DNA from: an uncultured Methanosarcinales archaeon | GTDB lineage: Archaea; Nanobdellota; Nanobdellia; Woesearchaeales; JACPBV01 | Length of the DNA: 64,000 nt | Direction of reading: 5' to 3' | Assembly (NCBI GenBank): GCA_964618315.1 | Contig: CAZTWQ010000003.1 | Span: 17,215 to 81,214, forward strand | In this document: piece after piece, positions 3 to 46,372 of the stretch | Layout: each line of letters starts with the position of its first letter | How positions within the stretch are numbered: the first letter of the stretch is position 1 | The notes under the pieces: generated by a model | Database searches by the model: none | What the model saw: only the letters and a program-made list of their open reading frames with translations | Told to the model about the DNA's origin: nothing | Position numbers and translations under genes: made by a program

Positions 3-572
3 GTAAAAGAAAGCACAGGTAGTGCAACATATAAATCCCTAATAATTGTAAATAAAGATAGTGGCATAGAGAAATTAGAAGATTTAAAAGGAAAAACATT
101 TGCATTTGTAGATCCTGCTTCAACTTCAGGCAACTTAATACCTAGAAAAATGTTAATAGAGAATGGAATAAACCCTGACGTAGATTTTAGCACAACATTT
201 TATGCAGGAACACATAACGCAGTTCAATACGCAATAGCAAATGGCAAAGTAGATGCTGGTGCAAGTGGCGATAATGTTTATCAAAGAATGGTTGAATCAG
301 GAGAGATTAATTCTGAAGTAAACATCATAATCCATGAATCAGAACCAATCCCTGGATCACCAATAGTAGTTAGAGGGAATTTACCAACAGAGATCAAACA
401 AAAAATACAGAATGTACTTATAAACATGGACCAGCAAACAATACATAAAGTAGATGGCTGGGGTGGAATATCAAGTTACCAAAAAGTAAGTGATAGTGAT
501 TACAATGTAATTAGAGAAACCGCAAAACTTTTAGGGATGGACGTTTCAAATGCAGAAGCTGCAAATAAATAG
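3..572 (+). CDS. phnD: Phosphonate ABC transporter substrate-binding protein, C-terminal part (5' end outside window)
   Basis: Frame 3 is open from the window edge (VKESTGSATYKSLIIV...FAFVDPASTSGNLIPR...GSPIVVRGNLP), so the listed ORF 150..572 is only the Met-initiated tail. PhnD-type motifs. Lies directly upstream of phnC/phnE. Confidence 0.8.
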   Translation, partial: VKESTGSATYKSLIIVNKDSGIEKLEDLKGKTFAFVDPASTSGNLIPRKMLIENGINPDVDFSTTFYAGTHNAVQYAIANGKVDAGASGDNVYQRMVESGEINSEVNIIIHESEPIPGSPIVVRGNLPTEIKQKIQNVLINMDQQTIHKVDGWGGISSYQKVSDSDYNVIRETAKLLGMDVSNAEAANK

Positions 573-16516: not shown

Positions 16517-18056
16517 ACACCTTTATTAATTCTTTATCATATAACTTAGTATTGTTAATCAGGTTTTGCTCCCAACTTTGAACCAAATTTAACCCATCCT
16601 GATGTCCAACAGCTGCAAAATCCGAATAATCAATGATGATATAACTTATGTTATAATCATCAAGACTATGATCTGGGTAATTACCAACAAATCTTTGGCT
16701 TACCATCCACATCCACCTACTCTTTGCCAAGGATATAGACCCCACATGATACATCTCAGCATCTTCAGGTATATTTTCCATCGCCCATCTAGTAAATTCA
16801 TATTGATGTGGGTTTAATCTCGATATGCCTGTATATGCCCCTTTCAGAGAAGTGTTTGCTGCTATTCCTATTGAAATAAAAATAAAAACTATGAAAGAAG
16901 TGATCAAACCATATTTGATAATATTCTTATATCCATTTATCTTAGGTATTAGAGAAATCAGATACAACAAACCCAAAACAATCAACGGATAGAATATATG
17001 TGTTGTCCCACTTAATGATCTATGAACCCTCCCCTTACCTATAACATCAAGATGTATCATAATATACAAACTAACTAACCACCCAAGCATAACTAAGTCT
17101 TTTTTATTTCTTCTTAATAAAAGGAACAATATCCCCAACAATAACAAAGGTATTGTCCAGTAAGGCCCAATCATAGGTTTATAGAAAAAATAAGACTGAG
17201 GAACCCCTGGATTATCTAGTTGAGGCTTAAACCAATAAACTAATCTGCTTAAATCTCCAACAGCCGCACTATCACCCTTATCTGTCCTTAATCTCACAAT
17301 TACATTCATAGATTGTAAAGGAAACATGCTAACAATCAATAAAAATAATACAATAGCAATAAACACGTGCTTAATGTTAAAAAATATCTTTCTTTCTTTA
17401 ATTAAAAAGAACAAACCAATTATAATTAAAGCGGCAATTGAATGAAAAAAATCCATAGGATGTATAAATAAGTTAATAACCAAAAATAAAGACATGAGAT
17501 ATAGATATATTGGTTTGTTTTCCCCCTTCAGATAAGTAGTACAATATTTATAAAAACAATAAAGTATCAAAGGTAAATATGCAAAACCCATCCTTTCAGG
17601 CCATTGCCCCCAAAGATAAATCATGATATCCCTCATTGAAAATATAAGCATAATTCCAGATATCAAAGCAGCCTCAAACCCAAAAAACCGCCTCATGATA
17701 AAATAAACAGCTAAAACAATCAAAGAACATAAGATTGCATTTGCCAGAAATATTGGAACATCACTCTCACCACCAAATACAGCAGCAATAGCTAAAGAAG
17801 TATGAAAAGATGGAGGATACCAAAGAACATGCTCCCTAAATTTATTAGCCTTACCATATCTCATATCAATATAATAAGGCAATGTTGTAATAGACCTATC
17901 TGATTCATATGTATAATCTGCAATAGAATAATGCGATGCTGCATCAACTTCCCCATAAGGAATTGGATTATTTTGGATAGGCAAAGTCCAGAAATATAAA
18001 CAAGTAAGATAAAGCAAGGTTACAATTATTGCTTCAACATTTCTATTGATCTTCAT
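16500..18056 (-). CDS. Polytopic membrane protein, GT-C-like
   Basis: More than 10 TM helices. First-loop motif YGEVDAASHYSIADY. C-terminal soluble domain. Confidence 0.65.
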   Translation of the reverse strand: MKINRNVEAIIVTLLYLTCLYFWTLPIQNNPIPYGEVDAASHYSIADYTYESDRSITTLPYYIDMRYGKANKFREHVLWYPPSFHTSLAIAAVFGGESDVPIFLANAILCSLIVLAVYFIMRRFFGFEAALISGIMLIFSMRDIMIYLWGQWPERMGFAYLPLILYCFYKYCTTYLKGENKPIYLYLMSLFLVINLFIHPMDFFHSIAALIIIGLFFLIKERKIFFNIKHVFIAIVLFLLIVSMFPLQSMNVIVRLRTDKGDSAAVGDLSRLVYWFKPQLDNPGVPQSYFFYKPMIGPYWTIPLLLLGILFLLLRRNKKDLVMLGWLVSLYIMIHLDVIGKGRVHRSLSGTTHIFYPLIVLGLLYLISLIPKINGYKNIIKYGLITSFIVFIFISIGIAANTSLKGAYTGISRLNPHQYEFTRWAMENIPEDAEMYHVGSISLAKSRWMWMVSQRFVGNYPDHSLDDYNISYIIIDYSDFAAVGHQDGLNLVQSWEQNLINNTKLYDKELIKVYEFEN

Positions 18057-37168: not shown

Positions 37169-37304
37169 TTTAAATTATTATTCAAACTAATTATCTAAAA
37201 TATAAAGTCACGTCTCAATACTACTTAGGACTTATTCTGGGTTTTTAAACTTTATTAAACAAGAATCGATAAGTTTTTAAAAATACACTTGATAACTCAA
37301 TAAG

Positions 37305-38012
37305 ATGATAATTGCAATAGATGGAAAATATGGTGTTGGAAAAACAACAACCGCAAAATGCTTAGCAAGAAGATTAGGATACAATTACCTCAGTACTGGA
37401 GCTATATTTAGGGCAATTGCACTTAAAGTTATAGAAGTAAAAATAGAAAAAGAAGACAAAGAAGCAATAATAAAAATTGCAAAAGAGATAAATATTGAAG
37501 TAAAACAGATCGACAAAGAAACAAAAATCTTTATCGATGGAAAAGATTTAACAGAAAAAGCATATACCCATAATGAAAAAATTGACTCAGTAACATCCTA
37601 CCTTGGAAGAAACATACCTGAAGTTACTGAAATAATAACAAAACTGCAGAGGGAGATTGCCAAGAGCGGAAACTTTATTTTCGAAGGAAGAGACATGACA
37701 TCAAGAGTTTTCCCAAACGCAGACTGGAAATTCTACATACAAGCAGAGATGATGAAAAGAGCTGAAAGGATGTATAAAATTCTCCCCGATGAAGAAAAAG
37801 AAACCTATCCCACCATAGAAGATTACTCTAAACTAGATCATTTTCATAAAGAATACCCTGGAGCAGAAGACGCTATTGTCTATGACAACACATATAGCCC
37901 AACACCTGAACAAGATGCGATTGTCCTTGAATATTATATAACTCATCCTAAAGAAATATTAGGGAATATCGGTAAAATAAAAGATAAAAAAGAACCAATA
38001 AAAAATAACTAA
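37305..38012 (+). CDS. cmk: Cytidylate kinase (type 1-like) with C-terminal extension
   Basis: MIIAIDGKYGVGKTT P-loop; YLSTGAIFRAIA (compare YLDTGAMYRA). Confidence 0.75.
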   Translation: MIIAIDGKYGVGKTTTAKCLARRLGYNYLSTGAIFRAIALKVIEVKIEKEDKEAIIKIAKEINIEVKQIDKETKIFIDGKDLTEKAYTHNEKIDSVTSYLGRNIPEVTEIITKLQREIAKSGNFIFEGRDMTSRVFPNADWKFYIQAEMMKRAERMYKILPDEEKETYPTIEDYSKLDHFHKEYPGAEDAIVYDNTYSPTPEQDAIVLEYYITHPKEILGNIGKIKDKKEPIKNN

Positions 38013-38917
38013 TATTTTATCTTTAAATCTTTTATCACATCATTCTCAGGATTCAGATAATCCTGGATAAATACTCTTTGTAATCCTTCTTTCTTCCCAT
38101 AACCAACTGAGACTAAGAGAACTCCATTATATTTATATGGTTTCAACAATTTATGGCAATGTCCAAAAATATGTAAAATCTTAGAATTTGGACTGACTTT
38201 TTTTGCATAATTGAATATAGGAATATACCAACAATTCCTTTTCTCCAATCTCAACTTAGGATCAGAATTTGAATGACTTCTAAAAACAATTTGAGTTACT
38301 CCCCCGCCGCACTTATCTAAAATAGATTTAATTTCTAAAGTATATGCCCTTAATTCGTTATCAGTTCTCTCCTCTATGTAAGGGATATTAATCTCAAGAG
38401 TTTTGCCTATAACTTTAAACTCTATATTGATTAATTTGCGAAACGCATGTGAATTATCCAAAATATCAAACAATGTTTCCCCTTTGGATTTTTTAGGGGG
38501 TAATAACTCATACGCTTTTCTTATCCTTTTTTCTTTATCCCAATCATTCCCCCCAAGATCTAAAATCTGTGGAATTTTCCCACTATTTACATATCCCTCA
38601 ATTAATTTATGCATTCTTCGTGTTGGCTCTAAAACTCCCAACCACTGTTTGATTAATACCTGTTTGTATTTACCCCTCCACTCAATATTTTCAGCTTCCA
38701 CATAATTCTTACCTTGTTCTTTAGCCATTAATTTAGATTTTCTAAGTAGATTTTCACCATTAGTTTCAGAAAAATTTGGATCAACGCTTCTATCTCCAAC
38801 TAACACAAATTCATCAATATGAGGAAAATTCTCAGATATAAACTCCAATACAACATTTGCAGAATTTTCTAAGTGAAAATCACTAGTGTTACATACAAGA
38901 TAACTTTTTTTCATCAT
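38009..38917 (-). CDS. Calcineurin-like metallophosphoesterase
   Basis: Ordered motifs SDFH (DxH), LVGDRS (GD), LGGNDWD (GNxD), RSHS, IFGHCH (GHxH). Confidence 0.7.
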   Translation of the reverse strand: MMKKSYLVCNTSDFHLENSANVVLEFISENFPHIDEFVLVGDRSVDPNFSETNGENLLRKSKLMAKEQGKNYVEAENIEWRGKYKQVLIKQWLGVLEPTRRMHKLIEGYVNSGKIPQILDLGGNDWDKEKRIRKAYELLPPKKSKGETLFDILDNSHAFRKLINIEFKVIGKTLEINIPYIEERTDNELRAYTLEIKSILDKCGGGVTQIVFRSHSNSDPKLRLEKRNCWYIPIFNYAKKVSPNSKILHIFGHCHKLLKPYKYNGVLLVSVGYGKKEGLQRVFIQDYLNPENDVIKDLKIKY

Positions 38918-38942
38918 AACTTTATCAAAATCTATTACACAC

Positions 38943-40352
38943 TTATTTAATTATCCCTTTCCCCTCTAACTTATCAACTAATTTCTGAACAGACTCTTCA
39001 ACAGAATATTTATCAGTATCTAATACTATATCTGGAGATTTAGGCTCTTCATATTTTGAAGAAACACTAATAAAATTCTCAAAACCTTTATGATTATCTC
39101 TTGCTTTCTTATAATGCCCTTTGACATCCCTATTCTCACACACATCCAAAGAACATTTGACATAGACTAAAAAGAACTTTTCCAATATCTTCCGTGCATA
39201 TTCCCTAGATTGATATGTAGGTGAAGCAACAGATGCTATAACCAATTTTCCCCCATTAGAACTTGATTTACACAACTCAGCAACCCTCTTCATATGCTCG
39301 TTCCTTTCACCTAATGTATAGCCTAAATCAGAAGATAGATTCTTTCTTAACTCATCTCCATCCAAAAGAACAAAAGATACATCCCTATCTTTCAATATTT
39401 TACTCAATCTTTCAGAAATCGTAGATTTTCCAGATCCATGTAAACCAGTAAACCACAAAGTCCACCCAGGTCCAACATCAGAAGAGCCCCCGTTGGCCTT
39501 ATTACGTATTTTCTCCAAAATCCCGTCACTTATCTCAATCTCACCTAATGTAGACCTCTCATTATCATGATAATCATTACCCCCACTTTCTAAGATGTTT
39601 TTAGACTTTACAATTCCCCTATAAAACTCTATAAGTTTCGTATTTCCTTCTTTATCCAAATTTAGTTTAGGGCTTATGATATGATAAGGATAATATGTCT
39701 CTATGCCTTGTCCACCATTTTCAATAAAATAATCAATAATCTTAATTGAATTTTCTTTTGGGTATATCCCTGGATGCGCCAATATAGAAATACCGCCCGC
39801 CCCTTTAATAATATCTATAACATCTTTAATTGATACCCTATGATTAGTCTCTAAAAAAGCTTCTTTCCCCCTACCTATTAATTTATCAAAAACCTCCCCG
39901 ACAGATTTAAACTTTTCAGGATATTTTTTTATCAAATATCTTGCAATATGCGGCCTCCCAAATGTTCCTTTGACTGTCTTTTTAACATCTGAATATTCTA
40001 TATCATAACCTAAGCTCTTTAATTTAGAGATTATCCTTTTCTTATTCCCTTCCCTTTTGACATTTATGTGCCTTATTAATTCAACCAATCTATTATTATT
40101 AGAATCGACAAATAATCCTATAACATCTATCTTATCATAATTGAATAAAGGATCGTCACAGCTTAGCTCTACACCAGATATTATCTCTATATTTTTACCC
40201 TTAGAATAATCAATTGCCTTCTTTATTGAACCCAAAGAATCGTGGTCTGTTATAGCAATAGCACTTAGCTTTTTTTCAATAGCAAAATCAACAAGTTCTT
40301 CAGGAGTTAATTCTCCATCTGATGATATAGTGTGATTATGTAAGTCTATCAT
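38943..40352 (-). CDS. cysC: Fusion protein: N-terminal PHP-domain phosphoesterase + C-terminal adenylylsulfate (APS) kinase
   Basis: N-terminus MIDLHNHTISSDGELTPEELVDFA...AITDHDS...GGNDYHD (PHP, COG0613-like). C-terminus GWTLWFTGLHGSGKSTISERL, LLDGDELRKNLSSDLGYTLGERNEHMKRV (CysC blocks). Confidence 0.85.
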   Translation of the reverse strand: MIDLHNHTISSDGELTPEELVDFAIEKKLSAIAITDHDSLGSIKKAIDYSKGKNIEIISGVELSCDDPLFNYDKIDVIGLFVDSNNNRLVELIRHINVKREGNKKRIISKLKSLGYDIEYSDVKKTVKGTFGRPHIARYLIKKYPEKFKSVGEVFDKLIGRGKEAFLETNHRVSIKDVIDIIKGAGGISILAHPGIYPKENSIKIIDYFIENGGQGIETYYPYHIISPKLNLDKEGNTKLIEFYRGIVKSKNILESGGNDYHDNERSTLGEIEISDGILEKIRNKANGGSSDVGPGWTLWFTGLHGSGKSTISERLSKILKDRDVSFVLLDGDELRKNLSSDLGYTLGERNEHMKRVAELCKSSSNGGKLVIASVASPTYQSREYARKILEKFFLVYVKCSLDVCENRDVKGHYKKARDNHKGFENFISVSSKYEEPKSPDIVLDTDKYSVEESVQKLVDKLEGKGIIK

Positions 40353-40370
40353 TTAAATTCCCATCATTTC

Positions 40371-40994
40371 CTAATCATTCAATATGTCTATAAGCAGCAG
40401 CACAAGCTTATCAAATCTTTCTTTCCCTATTTTTACTTTTTGAACTGGAGTCATCTTCACAAACTCCCCCCCAGTAGAATCCTTAATCACTTCTTTTCTT
40501 CCAAAAGAACTATCAACAGTACTTGGCTGCCCAATATTTCCCCTAAAAGGATATATTTTGATATGTAAATGCTCTTTTTTTTCTTTCCATGTCGTGCATT
40601 TTCCATATGTGCCTATAGAAATCGCCATCCCCCTATCTTCAGATATAGCCTTTAATTCTTGGTCCTGTATCATCACTACAGTCATTGCCCTACATATATT
40701 AGAAAATATTACACCATAATTTTCAGCTAATTTAGGATAAAAACTTATTTGAGAAAAATGAGTAAGGTGAGAAAAAGGCATCAACTGTATTGTAAAATCT
40801 AACTTGAGGTCTCCCCCAGTTTTTGGAGATAAAGTAGCAAACCACCCATCTTTTAAATTTCCTACCTTGCATATCACTGCACCATATCCAGTCTTTTCAC
40901 CAATACTGTATTTGACTTCTTTACACAGATTACATCCATCAACAAGAGTAACATCTTCATTAAATAATTTATCAGCTTCTTCAGATTTATACAT
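40371..40994 (-). CDS. HIT-superfamily-like protein with variant HxHxK motif
   Basis: CNLCKEV near the N-terminus, LSPKTGG...IQLMPFSHL, and EHLHIKIYPF in the position of the histidine triad. ATG 40994 is preceded by GGGGAT. Confidence 0.5.
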   Translation of the reverse strand: MYKSEEADKLFNEDVTLVDGCNLCKEVKYSIGEKTGYGAVICKVGNLKDGWFATLSPKTGGDLKLDFTIQLMPFSHLTHFSQISFYPKLAENYGVIFSNICRAMTVVMIQDQELKAISEDRGMAISIGTYGKCTTWKEKKEHLHIKIYPFRGNIGQPSTVDSSFGRKEVIKDSTGGEFVKMTPVQKVKIGKERFDKLVLLLIDILND

Positions 40995-40995
40995 T

Positions 40996-42084
40996 TTAAT
41001 CCCCAATTACCCTGATATACTCATCATTCTTCCTCTCACTCAGGTAAGCATCAAAATATCCTACAACCACCCTATAATATTTCCCCCCTTTAATAGGGGT
41101 CACTTCTTCAACCACCCCACTTACCTCAACTGTCTCCCCTTCATAAGCAAGCATACAATAATCCCTAGAATAAAAAGCAATTTTATCTATAAGCAAATCT
41201 TTGCAGGAATCATCTCCAGAAATGAATTTTGAGTTAGAAATTGTATAACAACCAGGCCTCACAACCGAACTTTTATTATCTTTAACCAGCCCTTCAAATT
41301 TAGCTATCCCTAATTTCCTATACTTCTCTTCACCCCACTTAAACCAAGTTTCATCTTCATTCTCAACAGCAAATATTACAAACAAAGTTCCTTTAAAGAA
41401 ACCTTCAGATTTTTTCCTATACATATTCTCAATATATATCTCTTTCTTATGTATAACATGTCTATTTCTTTTCTTATAGAAAGCTTCCCATTCTTCATAA
41501 GTCTTCCATCTTAAATCTGGATGATCATTCTTTTTTAAAAACTCCATCAATTCCCAGAAGTTTTCCTTACCATATACAACTATATTTACATCAGATATAT
41601 TAGGAGAGTAATGCCCCATAAGGGTAGAATAGGTAATACCAAAATCCTTTAATTCTAGGCCGCTCTTAAGAATAAATGAAACAAACTGGGCAACTGTCTT
41701 AAGATGCTCATCCAAATCTCTCTCAGGCATACTCATAAGGTCAGCAAGTCCTTCTTTAGGAGAATAAATCCTTTCTATATTATTCTTTGAAACAATAAAG
41801 AACAATGGACTTTCTTCATGTATTGGGCTCTTGAATATATATTCAGAATAAGCTCCAGTAAATGTTTGAATATATTGTTTAAGCTCATCTTTATCTATCC
41901 AAAGATTAAGTCTGTTCATCTTCTTTCCAGAAATAAACCTGTAGGGTAAAAAATCACATGAAATCTTATCAGTAGGTATATACTTAGGCTTGACTAAAAT
42001 CCCTTCTTCAGGATGTTCATTCCCATATACTTGGCAATGAATTCCGTCAACGGTTGTTATTATTGTAGATTCGTAGAAATGCAT
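40996..42084 (-). CDS. Pol-beta-superfamily nucleotidyltransferase, COG1665-like, paralog B (degenerate DxN)
   Basis: FGITYSTLMGHYSPNISDVNIVVYG (second Asp replaced by Asn). N-terminus HFYESTIITTVDGIHCQVYGNEHP...KPKYIP and C-terminus YYRVVVGYFDAYLS are shared with paralog A. Confidence 0.6.
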   Translation of the reverse strand: MHFYESTIITTVDGIHCQVYGNEHPEEGILVKPKYIPTDKISCDFLPYRFISGKKMNRLNLWIDKDELKQYIQTFTGAYSEYIFKSPIHEESPLFFIVSKNNIERIYSPKEGLADLMSMPERDLDEHLKTVAQFVSFILKSGLELKDFGITYSTLMGHYSPNISDVNIVVYGKENFWELMEFLKKNDHPDLRWKTYEEWEAFYKKRNRHVIHKKEIYIENMYRKKSEGFFKGTLFVIFAVENEDETWFKWGEEKYRKLGIAKFEGLVKDNKSSVVRPGCYTISNSKFISGDDSCKDLLIDKIAFYSRDYCMLAYEGETVEVSGVVEEVTPIKGGKYYRVVVGYFDAYLSERKNDEYIRVIGD

Positions 42085-42086
42085 TT

Positions 42087-43187
42087 TTACAATCCAGATT
42101 TAATAAACTCAGCCTCCCTCCTATCACTAACATAAGCATCGAAATAACCGATTACAACCCTATAATATCTATCACCAATTGTGGGAGTCACCAATTCAAG
42201 CAACCCGCATGCAGTTATCTCTTCCCCGGTCAAAGCTTGCTGCACAAATGGGATTGAATATGTAACTACCCTCTTAATCCCTAAAGAACCATCAACATCC
42301 ATATCTTTTCCATGATTATCTGTTATTTTACCATCTATAATCTCATAATATCCTGGCCTTACATGACTATTATAATGATCTATAACTTTCCCTTTCACTG
42401 TAACAAGTCCCATAGGCTCATACTTCTCTTCTCCCCACTTAAACCAAGTCTCTTCTGGTTCTTCAACAGTAAACAATGTAAAAACTGTATCCCCAAACAT
42501 GCCCTCATACTTCTTTCTTTTCATATGCTTAACATATTCTTCCTCAGTAAAATGAGATGATTCTGAAGTCTTATGCTCTTTATAATATTCTGCCCATTCT
42601 TCATCAGTTTTCCATTTTAACAAAGAATGCTTTGCATCCTTCAAATAATCAAGTACTCTCCACCCATTATCTTTGCCATATACTATTAAATCTATATCAG
42701 ATCTACCTGGAGTATAATTTCCAAGTAGAGTAGAATGAGTTATCCCTAAATCAGTAGACTTAACTCCACTATTTGTCAATAATTCAACCAATTCAACAAC
42801 AAGAGTAAGATACTTATCTAGGTCATTTTTAGGCACTTTCAAAAGCTCTTGAAGCCCTTTTCTACTATCATGTACTTTTTTTATCTTGCTTTTAGGAACA
42901 ACAAAGAACCAGTTATCATGAAATTTAGAATCATGTATATAATCAGGAAATTTTTGTCTAAACTGCTTTAGATATTCATTAACATTATCCTTTTTTGCAA
43001 AAAGATTGAATCTTACAAAACATTTTTCAAAAAGAAACCGATACTTCAGACCTTCTCCTTTTATCGCATCCTGAGGAATATACTTAGGTTTTACTATCAC
43101 ATATCCTTCAGGATGTTCATTTGCATAAGATTTACACTGAAATCCATCTACAGTATCTATCAATATCGATTCATAAAAATGCGCCAA
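42087..43187 (-). CDS. Pol-beta-superfamily nucleotidyltransferase, COG1665-like, paralog A (canonical DxD)
   Basis: LGITHSTLLGNYTPGRSDIDLIVYG. TTG 43187 with AGGTGAT SD 5 nt upstream gives an N-terminus (M)AHFYES parallel to paralog B. The track start is GTG 43196. Confidence 0.6.
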   Translation of the reverse strand: MAHFYESILIDTVDGFQCKSYANEHPEGYVIVKPKYIPQDAIKGEGLKYRFLFEKCFVRFNLFAKKDNVNEYLKQFRQKFPDYIHDSKFHDNWFFVVPKSKIKKVHDSRKGLQELLKVPKNDLDKYLTLVVELVELLTNSGVKSTDLGITHSTLLGNYTPGRSDIDLIVYGKDNGWRVLDYLKDAKHSLLKWKTDEEWAEYYKEHKTSESSHFTEEEYVKHMKRKKYEGMFGDTVFTLFTVEEPEETWFKWGEEKYEPMGLVTVKGKVIDHYNSHVRPGYYEIIDGKITDNHGKDMDVDGSLGIKRVVTYSIPFVQQALTGEEITACGLLELVTPTIGDRYYRVVIGYFDAYVSDRREAEFIKSGL

Positions 43188-43378
43188 ATATATCACCTAA
43201 TGCCCTTACAATCAATATTTTGGAGTAATTGTCGATATATAAATGTTATTAATTCATAATACATAATAGTTAATTTAAAGCATAAATTACAGTTTACTAT
43301 AAGGTTATTACTTAAAGTAACTAAAAAATAAGTAAAAAACAAATCATTTATAAATATAATTTACTTTTTTAATATTAA

Positions 43379-44809
43379 ATGTCATCAGCAAAAAAGATTG
43401 CAAAAAACACGGGTTTTTTGTTTTCAAAGGATATAATCGACAAAGTAATGTCATTTATCCTAGTTATAATAATAACAAGGTACTTAGGTAGTGCTGGGTT
43501 TGGAAAATATTCTTTTGCTTTTGCCTTTATCGGTCTGTTTATCATGTTCTCGCATTTTGGACTTACTACATATATGTTTAGAGAGATTGCAAAAGACAAA
43601 ACCCGAGCCAAAAAACTTGCAGACAATATTTTTACGCTAAAACTTTTCCTTCTGATTAGTGTTTATATTATCCTAGCGATAATCGCATGGAACTTTCCAA
43701 AAACCAAAGAAATCATGCTATTAATATTCCTTGTAATGGTACATGAATTCTTTGCAGTACTCAATACATTGATGGGCACAATATTCAAAGCGTATGAAAG
43801 AAATGAATTTGGCATATATTCTACAATCATTGATAAAAGCCTAGCATTACTTCTGGGGTCATATGCCCTCATAAGTGGTTATGGCATACATACACTAGTC
43901 ATAGCATTAATATTAGCAAAATTGAGTTCATTTGTATTCCGTTTCTGGATTATTTACAAAAAATTCATTAAAATCTCCATTGAAATTGATGTAAAATTCT
44001 GGAAAATCCTGATTAAAAACTCCATCCCATTCTGGCTAACAATGGTATTCCAAAGAATATATTACCGCATTGACACAGTAATGCTTACAAGTATGAAGGG
44101 TTATGTAGTAACCGGCTGGTATAATGCAGCCTCCACACTGATTGGAGCCCTCACATTTATCCCCACTGTAATCATGAGCGCAAGCTTCCCTGCATTATCC
44201 AGATTCTATCACATAAACGCAAAAGACCTATCCAAATTATTATACAAAAAAACGTTCTATTATCTTCTTTCAATTGGAATACCGATAAGTATTGGAATAA
44301 GCCTGTTATCACAACGCATAATCCTATTAATCTACAAAGAGAACTTTATTGGGTCCAGCATAGCACTCCAAATTTTATCATGGTCACTATTCCTTGTTTT
44401 TATAAACCAAGTAATGGGCTTCTTCCTAAACTCCATAAACAAACAGCATTTATTTACTTTATCTGCAGGTATCTGTGCATTATCAAATATAATCCTAAAC
44501 TTTATTCTAATCCCCAAATTAAGTTATATAGGTGCAGCAACAGCAACAGTAATAACTCAGTTTATTAACTTCTGCCTATTGTATTATTTCACAAGAAAAC
44601 ATGGATATCCATTAAATTTGATAAAAATAAGTTACAAACCAATAATTGCAGGTATACTCATGGGTGTTTTGATACCATATATCAAATTCTTACATGCAAT
44701 ATACATAATACCTATTGCTGCTGTTGCTTATTTTATCGCACTAATCTCAATAGGGGGCATAGGAAAAGAAGAGATTAAATTGATAAAATCATTCTTACCC
44801 AAATCTTAA
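43379..44809 (+). CDS. MOP-superfamily polysaccharide flippase (Wzx-like)
   Basis: 476 aa, 12-14 TM helices. N-terminus IAKNTGFLFSKDIIDKVMSFILVIIITRYLGSAGFGKYSFAF is typical of polysaccharide biosynthesis (Wzx) proteins. Confidence 0.8.
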   Translation: MSSAKKIAKNTGFLFSKDIIDKVMSFILVIIITRYLGSAGFGKYSFAFAFIGLFIMFSHFGLTTYMFREIAKDKTRAKKLADNIFTLKLFLLISVYIILAIIAWNFPKTKEIMLLIFLVMVHEFFAVLNTLMGTIFKAYERNEFGIYSTIIDKSLALLLGSYALISGYGIHTLVIALILAKLSSFVFRFWIIYKKFIKISIEIDVKFWKILIKNSIPFWLTMVFQRIYYRIDTVMLTSMKGYVVTGWYNAASTLIGALTFIPTVIMSASFPALSRFYHINAKDLSKLLYKKTFYYLLSIGIPISIGISLLSQRIILLIYKENFIGSSIALQILSWSLFLVFINQVMGFFLNSINKQHLFTLSAGICALSNIILNFILIPKLSYIGAATATVITQFINFCLLYYFTRKHGYPLNLIKISYKPIIAGILMGVLIPYIKFLHAIYIIPIAAVAYFIALISIGGIGKEEIKLIKSFLPKS

Positions 44810-44872
44810 ATATCTACATCAGAAAACTTAACCACAACCTTAATATATTCTCCTTTTTTACTATTAATTGAG

Positions 44873-46372
44873 ATGAGAGTATGTTTAATTAATCCTGGAA
44901 GAACCTATTATGAAAAATCTTCTTCTGTATCTAATGTGGATATAGGCTTGCCTTTAGGGATAATGTATCTTGCCTCATTTCTAGAAAAAAAAAACCACGA
45001 TGTCAAGATAATAGACTCATTAGTAATGGATGAAGCTGTTCTAGAAACAATAGACAACTCTAGAAGAAGATACGGCGCTCCATTAAAAATTATTAAATCA
45101 GAAGTTGAGAAATTCAAGCCAAATATTATAGGTGTTTCGAATCTTTTTAGTTCCCAGATAATTGATGCTGTAGAAACCACCAAAGCTATGAGGGAAATAT
45201 ATCCTACTATCCCACTTGTGATTGGGGGACCCCACGTAACTGTAAAAGGAAAAGAGTTTATGAAAAAAAATAAGCATATTGATTTTGCCCTACTAGGTGA
45301 AGCAGAAAACTCTTTTTCAGATTTATTATATCATATAGATGGCAAAAAGAATATAACAGATATTGATGGAATCATCTATAGAAAAAATGATAATATAATT
45401 GAAAACAAAAAATTAAGATTTATAAAAAATCTAGATGACTTGCCATTTCCAGCCTACCATTTAGTAGATATGGAAAAATATTTATCTTTATCTGAAAAAG
45501 GAATATACTCTAGGTCTATAGATGAAGAAAGAAGCATTTCAATAATTACCAGCAGGGGTTGCCCTTATAACTGTATATTTTGTTCTATCCACTGCCATAT
45601 GGGCAAGGAATGGAGACCCCACTCTGCACAATATGTTATAGACCACATAAAACATGTAGTTAACAAATACAAAATTAAACATATCCATTTTGAGGACGAC
45701 AATCTTACTTTAGACCTAAAAAGGTGCGGAAAAATTTTGGACGGCATTATTGAAAATAACCTTAATATCAAGTGGGATACCCCTAATGGCGTTAGAGCAG
45801 ATCGATTTAATGAAGAAATCGCTTTGAAGATGAAAAAATCAGGATGCACCAAACTTACAATGGGTGTAGAATCAGGAGATCAGTCAGTACTGGACAATAT
45901 AATTCAAAAAAATCTTAAACTAGAAAACGCCATTAAGATGGCAAGGATATGTAAGAAATTTAATATACCATTAAGTGCATTTTATGTTATTGGATTTCCT
46001 GGAGAGAGAAAAGAGAATATAGAAAAAACAATTAAATTTGCCCTAATGCTCCAAAGAAAATATAATGTGATGCAAGGTGGAGCTTTCTACGCAACCCCAC
46101 TTTATGGTACAAGACTTTACAATATATGCAAAGAAAACTCATATCTTACTAAAGAGATAACCCCCCAAGCATTATCCGAAGCTACTGCAGCATATGGTAC
46201 AAGTTTAATAAAAACAGAAGACTTCTCCCCTGAATATCTAAAAAAAGCAAATCAAAGATTGATAAGAGCTAATTACCTCAACTACTTATATCACCCTACA
46301 AAAGCAATAAAGTTTCTGTTCAAAAACCCTAAAATTATATTCAGTGTATTAAACAGGTTTTTAGGAAGATGA
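44873..46372 (+). CDS. Radical SAM protein with B12-binding-type N-domain
   Basis: SRGCPYNCIFC, VIGGPHVTVKG, GVESGDQSVL, IGFPGERKE. Confidence 0.9.
   Translation: MRVCLINPGRTYYEKSSSVSNVDIGLPLGIMYLASFLEKKNHDVKIIDSLVMDEAVLETIDNSRRRYGAPLKIIKSEVEKFKPNIIGVSNLFSSQIIDAVETTKAMREIYPTIPLVIGGPHVTVKGKEFMKKNKHIDFALLGEAENSFSDLLYHIDGKKNITDIDGIIYRKNDNIIENKKLRFIKNLDDLPFPAYHLVDMEKYLSLSEKGIYSRSIDEERSISIITSRGCPYNCIFCSIHCHMGKEWRPHSAQYVIDHIKHVVNKYKIKHIHFEDDNLTLDLKRCGKILDGIIENNLNIKWDTPNGVRADRFNEEIALKMKKSGCTKLTMGVESGDQSVLDNIIQKNLKLENAIKMARICKKFNIPLSAFYVIGFPGERKENIEKTIKFALMLQRKYNVMQGGAFYATPLYGTRLYNICKENSYLTKEITPQALSEATAAYGTSLIKTEDFSPEYLKKANQRLIRANYLNYLYHPTKAIKFLFKNPKIIFSVLNRFLGR

Follow-up and report, generated by a model that had tools for sequence, protein, structure and literature searches.

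Can one archaeal protein both form the sulfuryl donor 3'-phosphoadenosine 5'-phosphosulfate (PAPS) and remove 3',5'-adenosine bisphosphate (pAp), the inhibitory by-product of its use? This question is raised by a 469-aa open reading frame (ORF) in a 64,000-nucleotide stretch of DNA from an uncultured archaeon (positions 17,215 to 81,214 of contig CAZTWQ010000003.1; hereafter the window), in which a PHP phosphoesterase domain is followed by an adenylylsulfate (APS) kinase domain. The window (G000:C3) belongs to a genome of 1.48 Mb that is 86.7% complete, and the closest homologs of the fusion protein were found in metagenome-assembled genomes of Woesearchaeota/Nanoarchaeota. Based on sequence and gene context, we consider it likely (probability of about 0.7) that the ORF encodes a bifunctional APS kinase/pAp 3'-phosphatase, which would serve the PAPS cycle of a glycan-sulfation module. 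Related loci, genomes and proteins are designated below by L, G and P numbers, respectively.

The fused reading frame and its two domains

The ORF and its parts were delimited as follows.

38943..40352, minus strand: PHP::APS-kinase fusion ORF of 469 aa (from the ORF listing, Pfam, NCBIfam and PDB alignments).
39504..40352, minus strand: PHP domain of the COG0613 / Cv1693 / RNase AM type, residues 1–283 (from alignments to 7ug9 and 2yb1).
39465..39503, minus strand: linker NKANGGSSDVGPG, residues 284–296, standing where unfused relatives have a stop codon, a spacer and a start codon.
38943..39464, minus strand: APS-kinase domain, residues 297–469, with P-loop G303–T311, D331/D333 (LDGD), R336, Y345, R350, H353 and the lid motif RDVKGHYKKAR.
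39561..39579, minus strand: site of a 15-nt indel between TAATGA direct repeats (from comparison of the window with L038).

An earlier sequence-only reading had described a single ORF of this length, with PHP motifs over about its first 285 residues and a complete CysC domain behind them. This description proved accurate: DLHNHT..SDG, AITDHDS, GGNDYHD, GLHGSGKST and LDGDELRKNL all occurred in the translation, and the PHP domain (residues 1–283) was followed by a full APS-kinase domain. In unfused relatives the PHP protein ends with '...LENLKNRIPAS*' and the kinase restarts with 'MAKQGWTLWFTGLHGSGKST'; at the window junction, the two domains are joined in frame by the Gly/Ser-rich linker. The concern, voiced in that reading, that a frameshift or an assembly error had merged two separate genes was checked against L038, a separately assembled ENA contig (NODE_1762, coverage 4.8). 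It matched positions 37230–46352 of the window (9.1 kb) with zero mismatches and had the same open frame across the junction; the sole difference was a 15-nt in-frame deletion between the TAATGA repeats (39561–39579 of the window vs. L038:6001-7395). A second lineage (P0003/P0004, 49% identity) was fused over its full length in three assemblies (NCBI and Logan). The PHP–APS kinase fusion is real and not an artefact.

The kinase half matched Pfam APS_kinase (PF01583) over residues 296–445 (7.6e-45, 153 bits vs. a cut-off of 21) and passed both curated NCBIfam cut-offs, with 169.4 bits vs. 138.7 for apsK (TIGR00455) and 163.9 vs. 163 for NF003013. In the PDB search it aligned end to end with the APS kinase of human PAPSS1 (4e-35). 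The P-loop GLHGSGKST lies at residues 303–311, LDGD (330–333) corresponds to the catalytic D87 and D89 of PAPSS1, and of the residues that bind APS in PAPSS1 (R92, F101, R106 and N109), R92 and R106 are kept as R336 and R350. In its full-length alignment, P-loop, LDGD, these two arginines and the lid motif, the domain thus resembles the APS kinases of CysC and PAPS synthase (PDB 2ofx, 1m7g). It differs from them by three substitutions (in PAPSS1 numbering F101→Y, here Y345; N109→H, here H353; and N90→E) and by having a phosphatase rather than ATP sulfurylase or CysN as its partner. The same His-variant kinase follows immediately after a canonical Sat (ATP sulfurylase) in L054, and in L052, L056 and L057 Sat forms one protein with the other local kinase variant (R106→I). 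Because both variants occur beside or fused to canonical Sat, they were regarded as genuine APS kinases, and a non-APS substrate was rejected as the leading interpretation of the altered residues. The altered APS-binding residues of the window kinase are probably functional, as judged from these sequence comparisons.

The PHP half matched the Pfam PHP family at residues 3–148 (4.3e-15, 56.9 bits; cut-off 26.4), and its best PDB matches were RNase AM (7ug9, 5e-25) and Cv1693 (2yb1, 9e-22). The metals of RNase AM are held by H13/E72/D255, E72/H83/H198 and D20/H45/H257, R201 lies at the scissile phosphate, R107, R110 and R141 bind the 5'-phosphate and F161 stacks (PMC9410882). A PHP half without metal ligands, the second concern of the earlier reading, was not what the alignment to 7ug9 and 2yb1 gave: all nine ligand positions were filled (H5, H7, D12, H37, E62, D76, H193, D260 and H262), eight of them with the residue of RNase AM, D76 replacing a His (H83). 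Across 33 homologs, seven of the positions were invariant, position 5 was H or Q, and position 76 was H, D or E. The 5'-phosphate pocket residues R100 and R133 and the stacking F155 (R107, R141 and Phe161 in RNase AM) were kept in 31–33 of the 33. The predicted metal centre and 5'-phosphate pocket of the domain are intact. It thus shares with Cv1693 and RNase AM/YciV the PHP fold with insertion domain, the trinuclear-metal ligand set, the 5'-phosphate Arg pocket and the stacking Phe, and differs from them in one His ligand replaced by Asp, in an Ile at the Arg201 position, in its archaeal origin, in its fusion to a kinase and in scores below the equivalog cut-offs.

Two side observations concern this PHP type. 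The first His of the HxH motif is Gln (DLQxHT) in most stand-alone PHP1 and PHP2 proteins (L006, L011–L017, L020, L024, L028 and others), and His in the fused copy of the window. Other fusions of the type join PHP to a GT1 glycosyltransferase (P0250, 672 aa) or to shikimate kinase (P0382, 474 aa); the latter was rejected as an APS kinase fusion on account of that partner.

Recurrence of the kinase–phosphatase coupling

Relatives were gathered with the small HIT-like ORF upstream of the fusion as a probe, yielding 27 genome loci and several metagenome loci; further fusions came from an exhaustive representative search of clusters. In all fetched loci, two nucleotidyltransferase-like genes (NTase-A and NTase-B) and this ORF of about 200 aa (together, the trio) occurred in the same order. 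In most loci PHP occupied the slot after the HIT-like ORF; L008, L019, L034 and L035 had an HD_4-like protein there, and L021 a 430-aa Inositol_P+APS_kinase fusion. Stand-alone PHP (288–296 aa) and APS kinase (176–182 aa) proteins were found in more than ten loci. In ten loci (L011–L013, L015, L017, L020, L024, L028–L030) a separate kinase gene directly followed PHP and in many cases overlapped it by 4 nt; in five, the kinase gene lay divergently upstream of NTase-A. Fused arrangements comprised PHP–kinase in the window and L004, kinase–PHP2 in L007 and kinase–Inositol_P in L026.

Counting the wider search, PHP and APS kinase were fused independently in at least six lineages and in two orders: the window, L004/P0003, L007/P0002, P0241 and P0243 (both kinase–PHP), and the bacterial P0275/P0395 (PHP–kinase). 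P0395, from a Thermoleophilaceae bacterium, is annotated as adenylyl-sulfate kinase alone. P0276 has no recognisable P-loop and was not counted. In a maximum-likelihood tree of PHP domains, the window domain nested among unfused PHP1 genes in a supported clade (95/87), L004/P0003 formed a fused clade of their own (100/99), the L007 domain fell in the PHP2 paralog clade (100/99), and the bacterial fusions were remote. By its placement in the tree, the window fusion is a young event inside an unfused clade.

The phosphatase partner was not confined to the PHP fold. Domains of the inositol monophosphatase (IMPase)/CysQ-like type were fused to APS kinase in L021, L026, L051 and L058, again in both orders, the one in L026 being closest to CysQ (TIGR01331, 1.2e-53). 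Elsewhere in the phylum, the kinase adjoined an IMPase/CysQ-like gene in 10 of 20 loci. The kinase–PHP fusion P0243 follows immediately after CysD and CysN(C), and the bacterial fusions have two sulfatases and an MFS transporter as neighbours. In these fusions and adjacencies, the coupling of kinase and phosphatase is seen repeatedly, with either of two unrelated phosphatase folds, with either domain first, and with or without the trio, which ties both activities together. The CysQ/IMPase-family 3'(2'),5'-bisphosphate nucleotidases share with the PHP domain the predicted reaction, the genomic position and the kinase fusions, and differ in an unrelated fold; they are analogous, not homologous. 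The label of a Rosetta-stone fusion, given to the ORF from its sequence, was well chosen: the parts are separate elsewhere, the fusion recurs independently and the neighbourhood is kept when they are unfused.

Candidate users of PAPS were found near several of these loci. A Sulfotransfer_1 protein (7.8e-31) adjoins the module in L026, L008 encodes a Sulfotransfer_2-type protein (28.4 bits, cut-off 22), homologs of which occur in L021, L034 and L035, and the classical sulfotransferases flanking trio loci carry PAPS-binding motifs. As a side observation, the CDP-alcohol-transferase-like membrane protein CDPL269 occurred in PHP-type loci and the sulfotransferase ST264 in HD/IMPase-type loci, never together; they may therefore replace one another as users of the donor.

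In the mechanism proposed here, the C-terminal domain would phosphorylate the 3'-OH of APS to give PAPS, and the N-terminal PHP domain would act as a trinuclear-metal 3'-phosphatase of the Cv1693/RNase AM type, converting pAp (3',5'-ADP) to AMP and phosphate. This hydrolysis would relieve product inhibition and return the adenylate. The protein may have arisen recently, through loss of the stop codon between two neighbouring genes with coupled translation that belong to a conserved surface-glycan module of DPANN archaea, whose co-transcribed trio probably supplies APS. The comparisons establish what the two domains are, that their catalytic residues are intact, that the fusions are real and independent, how the gene neighbourhoods are built and that Sat/CysDN is absent; what both domains act on, which acceptor is sulfated and what part the trio plays are inferred. 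The coupling of PAPS formation to pAp removal, already suggested from the window by itself, gained support from the adjacencies, the repeated fusions, the CysQ-like substitution, the CysDN and sulfotransferase context and the intact metal ligands and 5'-phosphate pocket of the PHP domain.

Operon neighbours and the source of APS

The neighbouring genes listed here have the same orientation as the fusion.

40371..41006, minus strand: HIT-fold protein, 211 aa, with invariant H146-x-H148-x-K150, encoded by the next gene upstream of the fusion, in one operon with it.
40996..42084, minus strand: NTase-B, 362 aa; the DxN motif of this Pol-beta-like nucleotidyltransferase paralog is degenerate.
42087..43196, minus strand: NTase-A, 369 aa; its GRSDIDLIVYG motif is intact, and an OB-like beta domain lies at the C-terminus.
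38009..38917, minus strand: lineage-specific ORF of 302 aa, directly downstream (26 nt).

The AlphaFold2 model of the HIT-like protein (predicted local distance difference test, pLDDT, 87) had Hint, Fhit and DcpS as its top Foldseek matches (probabilities 0.9–0.99), and its HxHxK was invariant in the alignment columns. Adenylylsulfate is a known substrate of HIT enzymes (PMC4613722). For NTase-A (pLDDT 92), Foldseek returned partial PDB matches alone, to OB folds and to the poly(A) polymerase Pla1; as no full-length match was obtained, the assigned fold is based on its motif together with a weak Pfam NTP_transf_2 match. PDB sequence searches with the HIT-like and NTase proteins gave noise alone. 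NTase-B and the HIT-like protein are fused to one protein of about 570 aa in three loci (L008:8001-9713, L019:1242-2954, L021:8906-10636), and open NTase-B/HIT-like frames were also found in G030 and G233 (558 and 581 aa), which adds a second Rosetta-stone link to the module.

Farther out, the surroundings form a glycan island that encodes a Polysacc_synt flippase, glycosyltransferases, sugar-nucleotide enzymes and CDP-alcohol-transferase-like proteins, besides a cytidylate kinase and a phosphonate-binding protein. The window opens at the island's edge, where positions 150–572 (plus strand) encode the C-terminal portion of an ABC-transporter protein of the phosphonate-binding type (PF12974, 2.6e-25). 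The 302-aa downstream ORF had no Pfam or NCBIfam match and a homolog only in L038 besides the window copy; by eye, it shows metallophosphoesterase-like motifs (DFH, GD, GND, GHCH).

Among the 27 other module genomes, a full APS kinase was present at the module in about 18. Sat was found in 0 of the 27, a CysD/CysNC pair in G017 only, and one PAPS_reduct protein each in G019 and G025. Since the module genomes have no canonical ATP sulfurylase, the NTase-A/NTase-B/HIT trio is the leading candidate for a putative source of APS. The phylum was surveyed in an even sample of 251 genomes, of which 33 had APS kinase, 11 the small HIT-like ORF that marks the trio (10 of them strong matches) and four both (Fisher p = 0.04); with so few genomes carrying both, the trio was rejected as an obligate partner of the kinase. 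Sat was present in 14 of the 32 other kinase-positive genomes and in none of the strong-trio genomes of this sample. The remaining kinase-positive genomes had CysD plus CysN(C), or a CTP_transf_like–APS kinase protein. Two APS kinases from Sat-less genomes carry an N-terminal cytidylyltransferase-like (PF01467) domain of about 125 aa (L050:7359-8237, L053:8088-8969), and similar ORFs of about 300 aa were seen in L043, L046, L047 and L049; this domain may be a minimal nucleotidyltransferase partner of the kinase.

A broader proposal can be made tentatively, and we think it somewhat less probable than its negation. Kinase and phosphatase would form the downstream half of a sulfate-activation pathway with a new first enzyme, in which the trio makes APS or a PAPS-like donor in place of Sat/CysDN and PHP is an obligatory recycling or pulling step. 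Such a step would explain why PHP is kept with the trio where APS kinase is absent.

Alternative readings and the meaning of the fusion

Several observations weigh against a bifunctional APS kinase/pAp phosphatase. The scores of the PHP half fall far short of the equivalog cut-offs for pAp phosphatase (NF041577, 3',5'-nucleoside bisphosphate phosphatase; 136 bits vs. 400) and RNase AM (NF047791, RNase RNM; 143 bits vs. 375), both matched over residues 2–268, and exceed the general PHP Pfam cut-off alone. RNase AM contacts the scissile phosphate through an Arg (R201) that is absent here, its equivalent being Ile196; this position is hydrophobic in 33 of 33 homologs, including the fusion within a CysDN operon. 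The deletion in L038 removes DYHDN and with it the PHP metal ligands D260 and H262, the counterparts of which are essential in RNase AM (PMC9410882); the allele may be a real population variant with a dead phosphatase half or an error of the 4.8x assembly. In the window genome (86.7% complete), no above-cut-off match to ATP-sulfurylase, PAPS_reduct (CysD/CysH) or three sulfotransferase Pfam families was obtained, nor a homolog of ST264 or of the HD proteins; the pooled-alignment Pfam scan of the window ORFs lists multi-member families alone, and a single sulfotransferase would escape it. A kinase and a phosphatase acting at the same 3' position could also cycle PAPS to APS futilely unless the phosphatase discriminates against PAPS. 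Finally, a module subtype with the order Phosphodiest (PF01663)–NTase-A–NTase-B–HIT–PHP was found in six genomes at least 95% complete and devoid of any APS kinase (G030, G048, G175, G229, G233, G128; loci L059–L060, L062–L065). No explanation offered covers what PHP hydrolyses in these genomes, where its presence makes its tie to the trio at least as strong as that to the kinase; its primary partner may be the trio. The subtype occurs also in L016, L018, L022, L031 and L033.

The six genomes without APS kinase favour the most probable of the rivals, although we regard it as unlikely: PHP would belong to the trio and not to the PAPS cycle, and the fusion would merely reflect operon adjacency. 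Its substrate could be a different 3'-phosphoester of a 5'-phosphorylated nucleotide made or left by the trio, such as a 3'-linked intermediate, or PHP could edit PAPS to APS. The position of PHP directly after the HIT-like gene in nearly all loci fits this, as do the low equivalog scores, the ready fusion of operon neighbours (NTase-B with the HIT-like protein) and the cleavage of 3'-phosphodiesters besides monoesters by RNase AM-type PHPs (PMC9410882). Against it stand the kinase–phosphatase fusions themselves, which involve two unrelated folds and both orders and occur also without the trio (L051, L058, L069, L036). Moreover, the phosphatase fused to the kinase in L026 is CysQ-like, and the PHP slot after the HIT-like gene of L021 is occupied by a kinase-fused domain of the IMPase type.

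Altogether less probable is a kinase that acts not on APS but on a PAPS-like nucleotide donor with another group, the matching 3',5'-bisphosphate being recycled by PHP. A CysC homolog of Campylobacter, which phosphorylates cytidine diphosphoramidate, offers an analogy. The three departures from canonical APS kinase, the lack of ATP sulfurylase and sulfotransferase matches in the genome, and an island rich in CDP-alcohol-transferase-like genes with a cytidylate kinase and a phosphonate-binding protein are consistent with such a donor. The His-variant kinase next to canonical Sat in L054, a score above the apsK equivalog-domain cut-off and the classical sulfotransferases with PAPS-binding motifs beside trio loci argue for APS. 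That the single ORF results from a stop codon or frame lost in sequencing or assembly is scarcely credible: the two genes do have a 4-nt overlap or a short spacer in most relatives, but the junction is identical in the independent assembly L038, the Gly/Ser-rich linker is clean and in frame, and a second lineage (49% identity) is likewise fused in three assemblies.

The architecture of the predicted APS kinase/pAp phosphatase is a variant of known PAPS-pathway fusions, built from known families. As in Sat–APS kinase (PAPS synthase; Aquifex 2gks) and CysN–CysC, steps around APS and PAPS are physically coupled and APS kinase is the recurrent fusion partner. In contrast to these, the partner in the window is predicted to act after sulfotransfer, on the by-product, so that it would close the cycle and channel no intermediate. 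No description of a PHP–APS kinase fusion was found in the searchable literature, and nothing specific on CysQ/APS kinase fusions or on sulfation in DPANN archaea. If the proposed activities are correct, synthesis of the sulfate donor would be coupled to destruction of its inhibitory by-product, an arrangement not among the described PAPS-pathway enzymes. The in vivo role of COG0613 PHP proteins is ambiguous between pAp phosphatase and 5'-3' exoribonuclease, and the fusion would then be genomic evidence for the former in archaeal sulfation pathways. It would also anchor the trio to sulfate activation in genomes without known ATP sulfurylases, which would suggest that APS may be formed by a third route and that DPANN archaea may bear sulfated glycans on their surface. 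The compact kinase/phosphatase could serve enzymatic PAPS-regeneration cascades, and the recurrent fusions make the functional assignment directly testable.

A further type of fusion was noted in relatives of the same phylum. Proteins of 754–914 aa combine a pyruvate-kinase barrel, PUA_2 and ATP sulfurylase, three of the four also with APS kinase (L056:5722-8466, L057:8110-10851, L052:6343-8820, L051:3183-5447), which suggests a coupling of ATP regeneration to sulfate activation.

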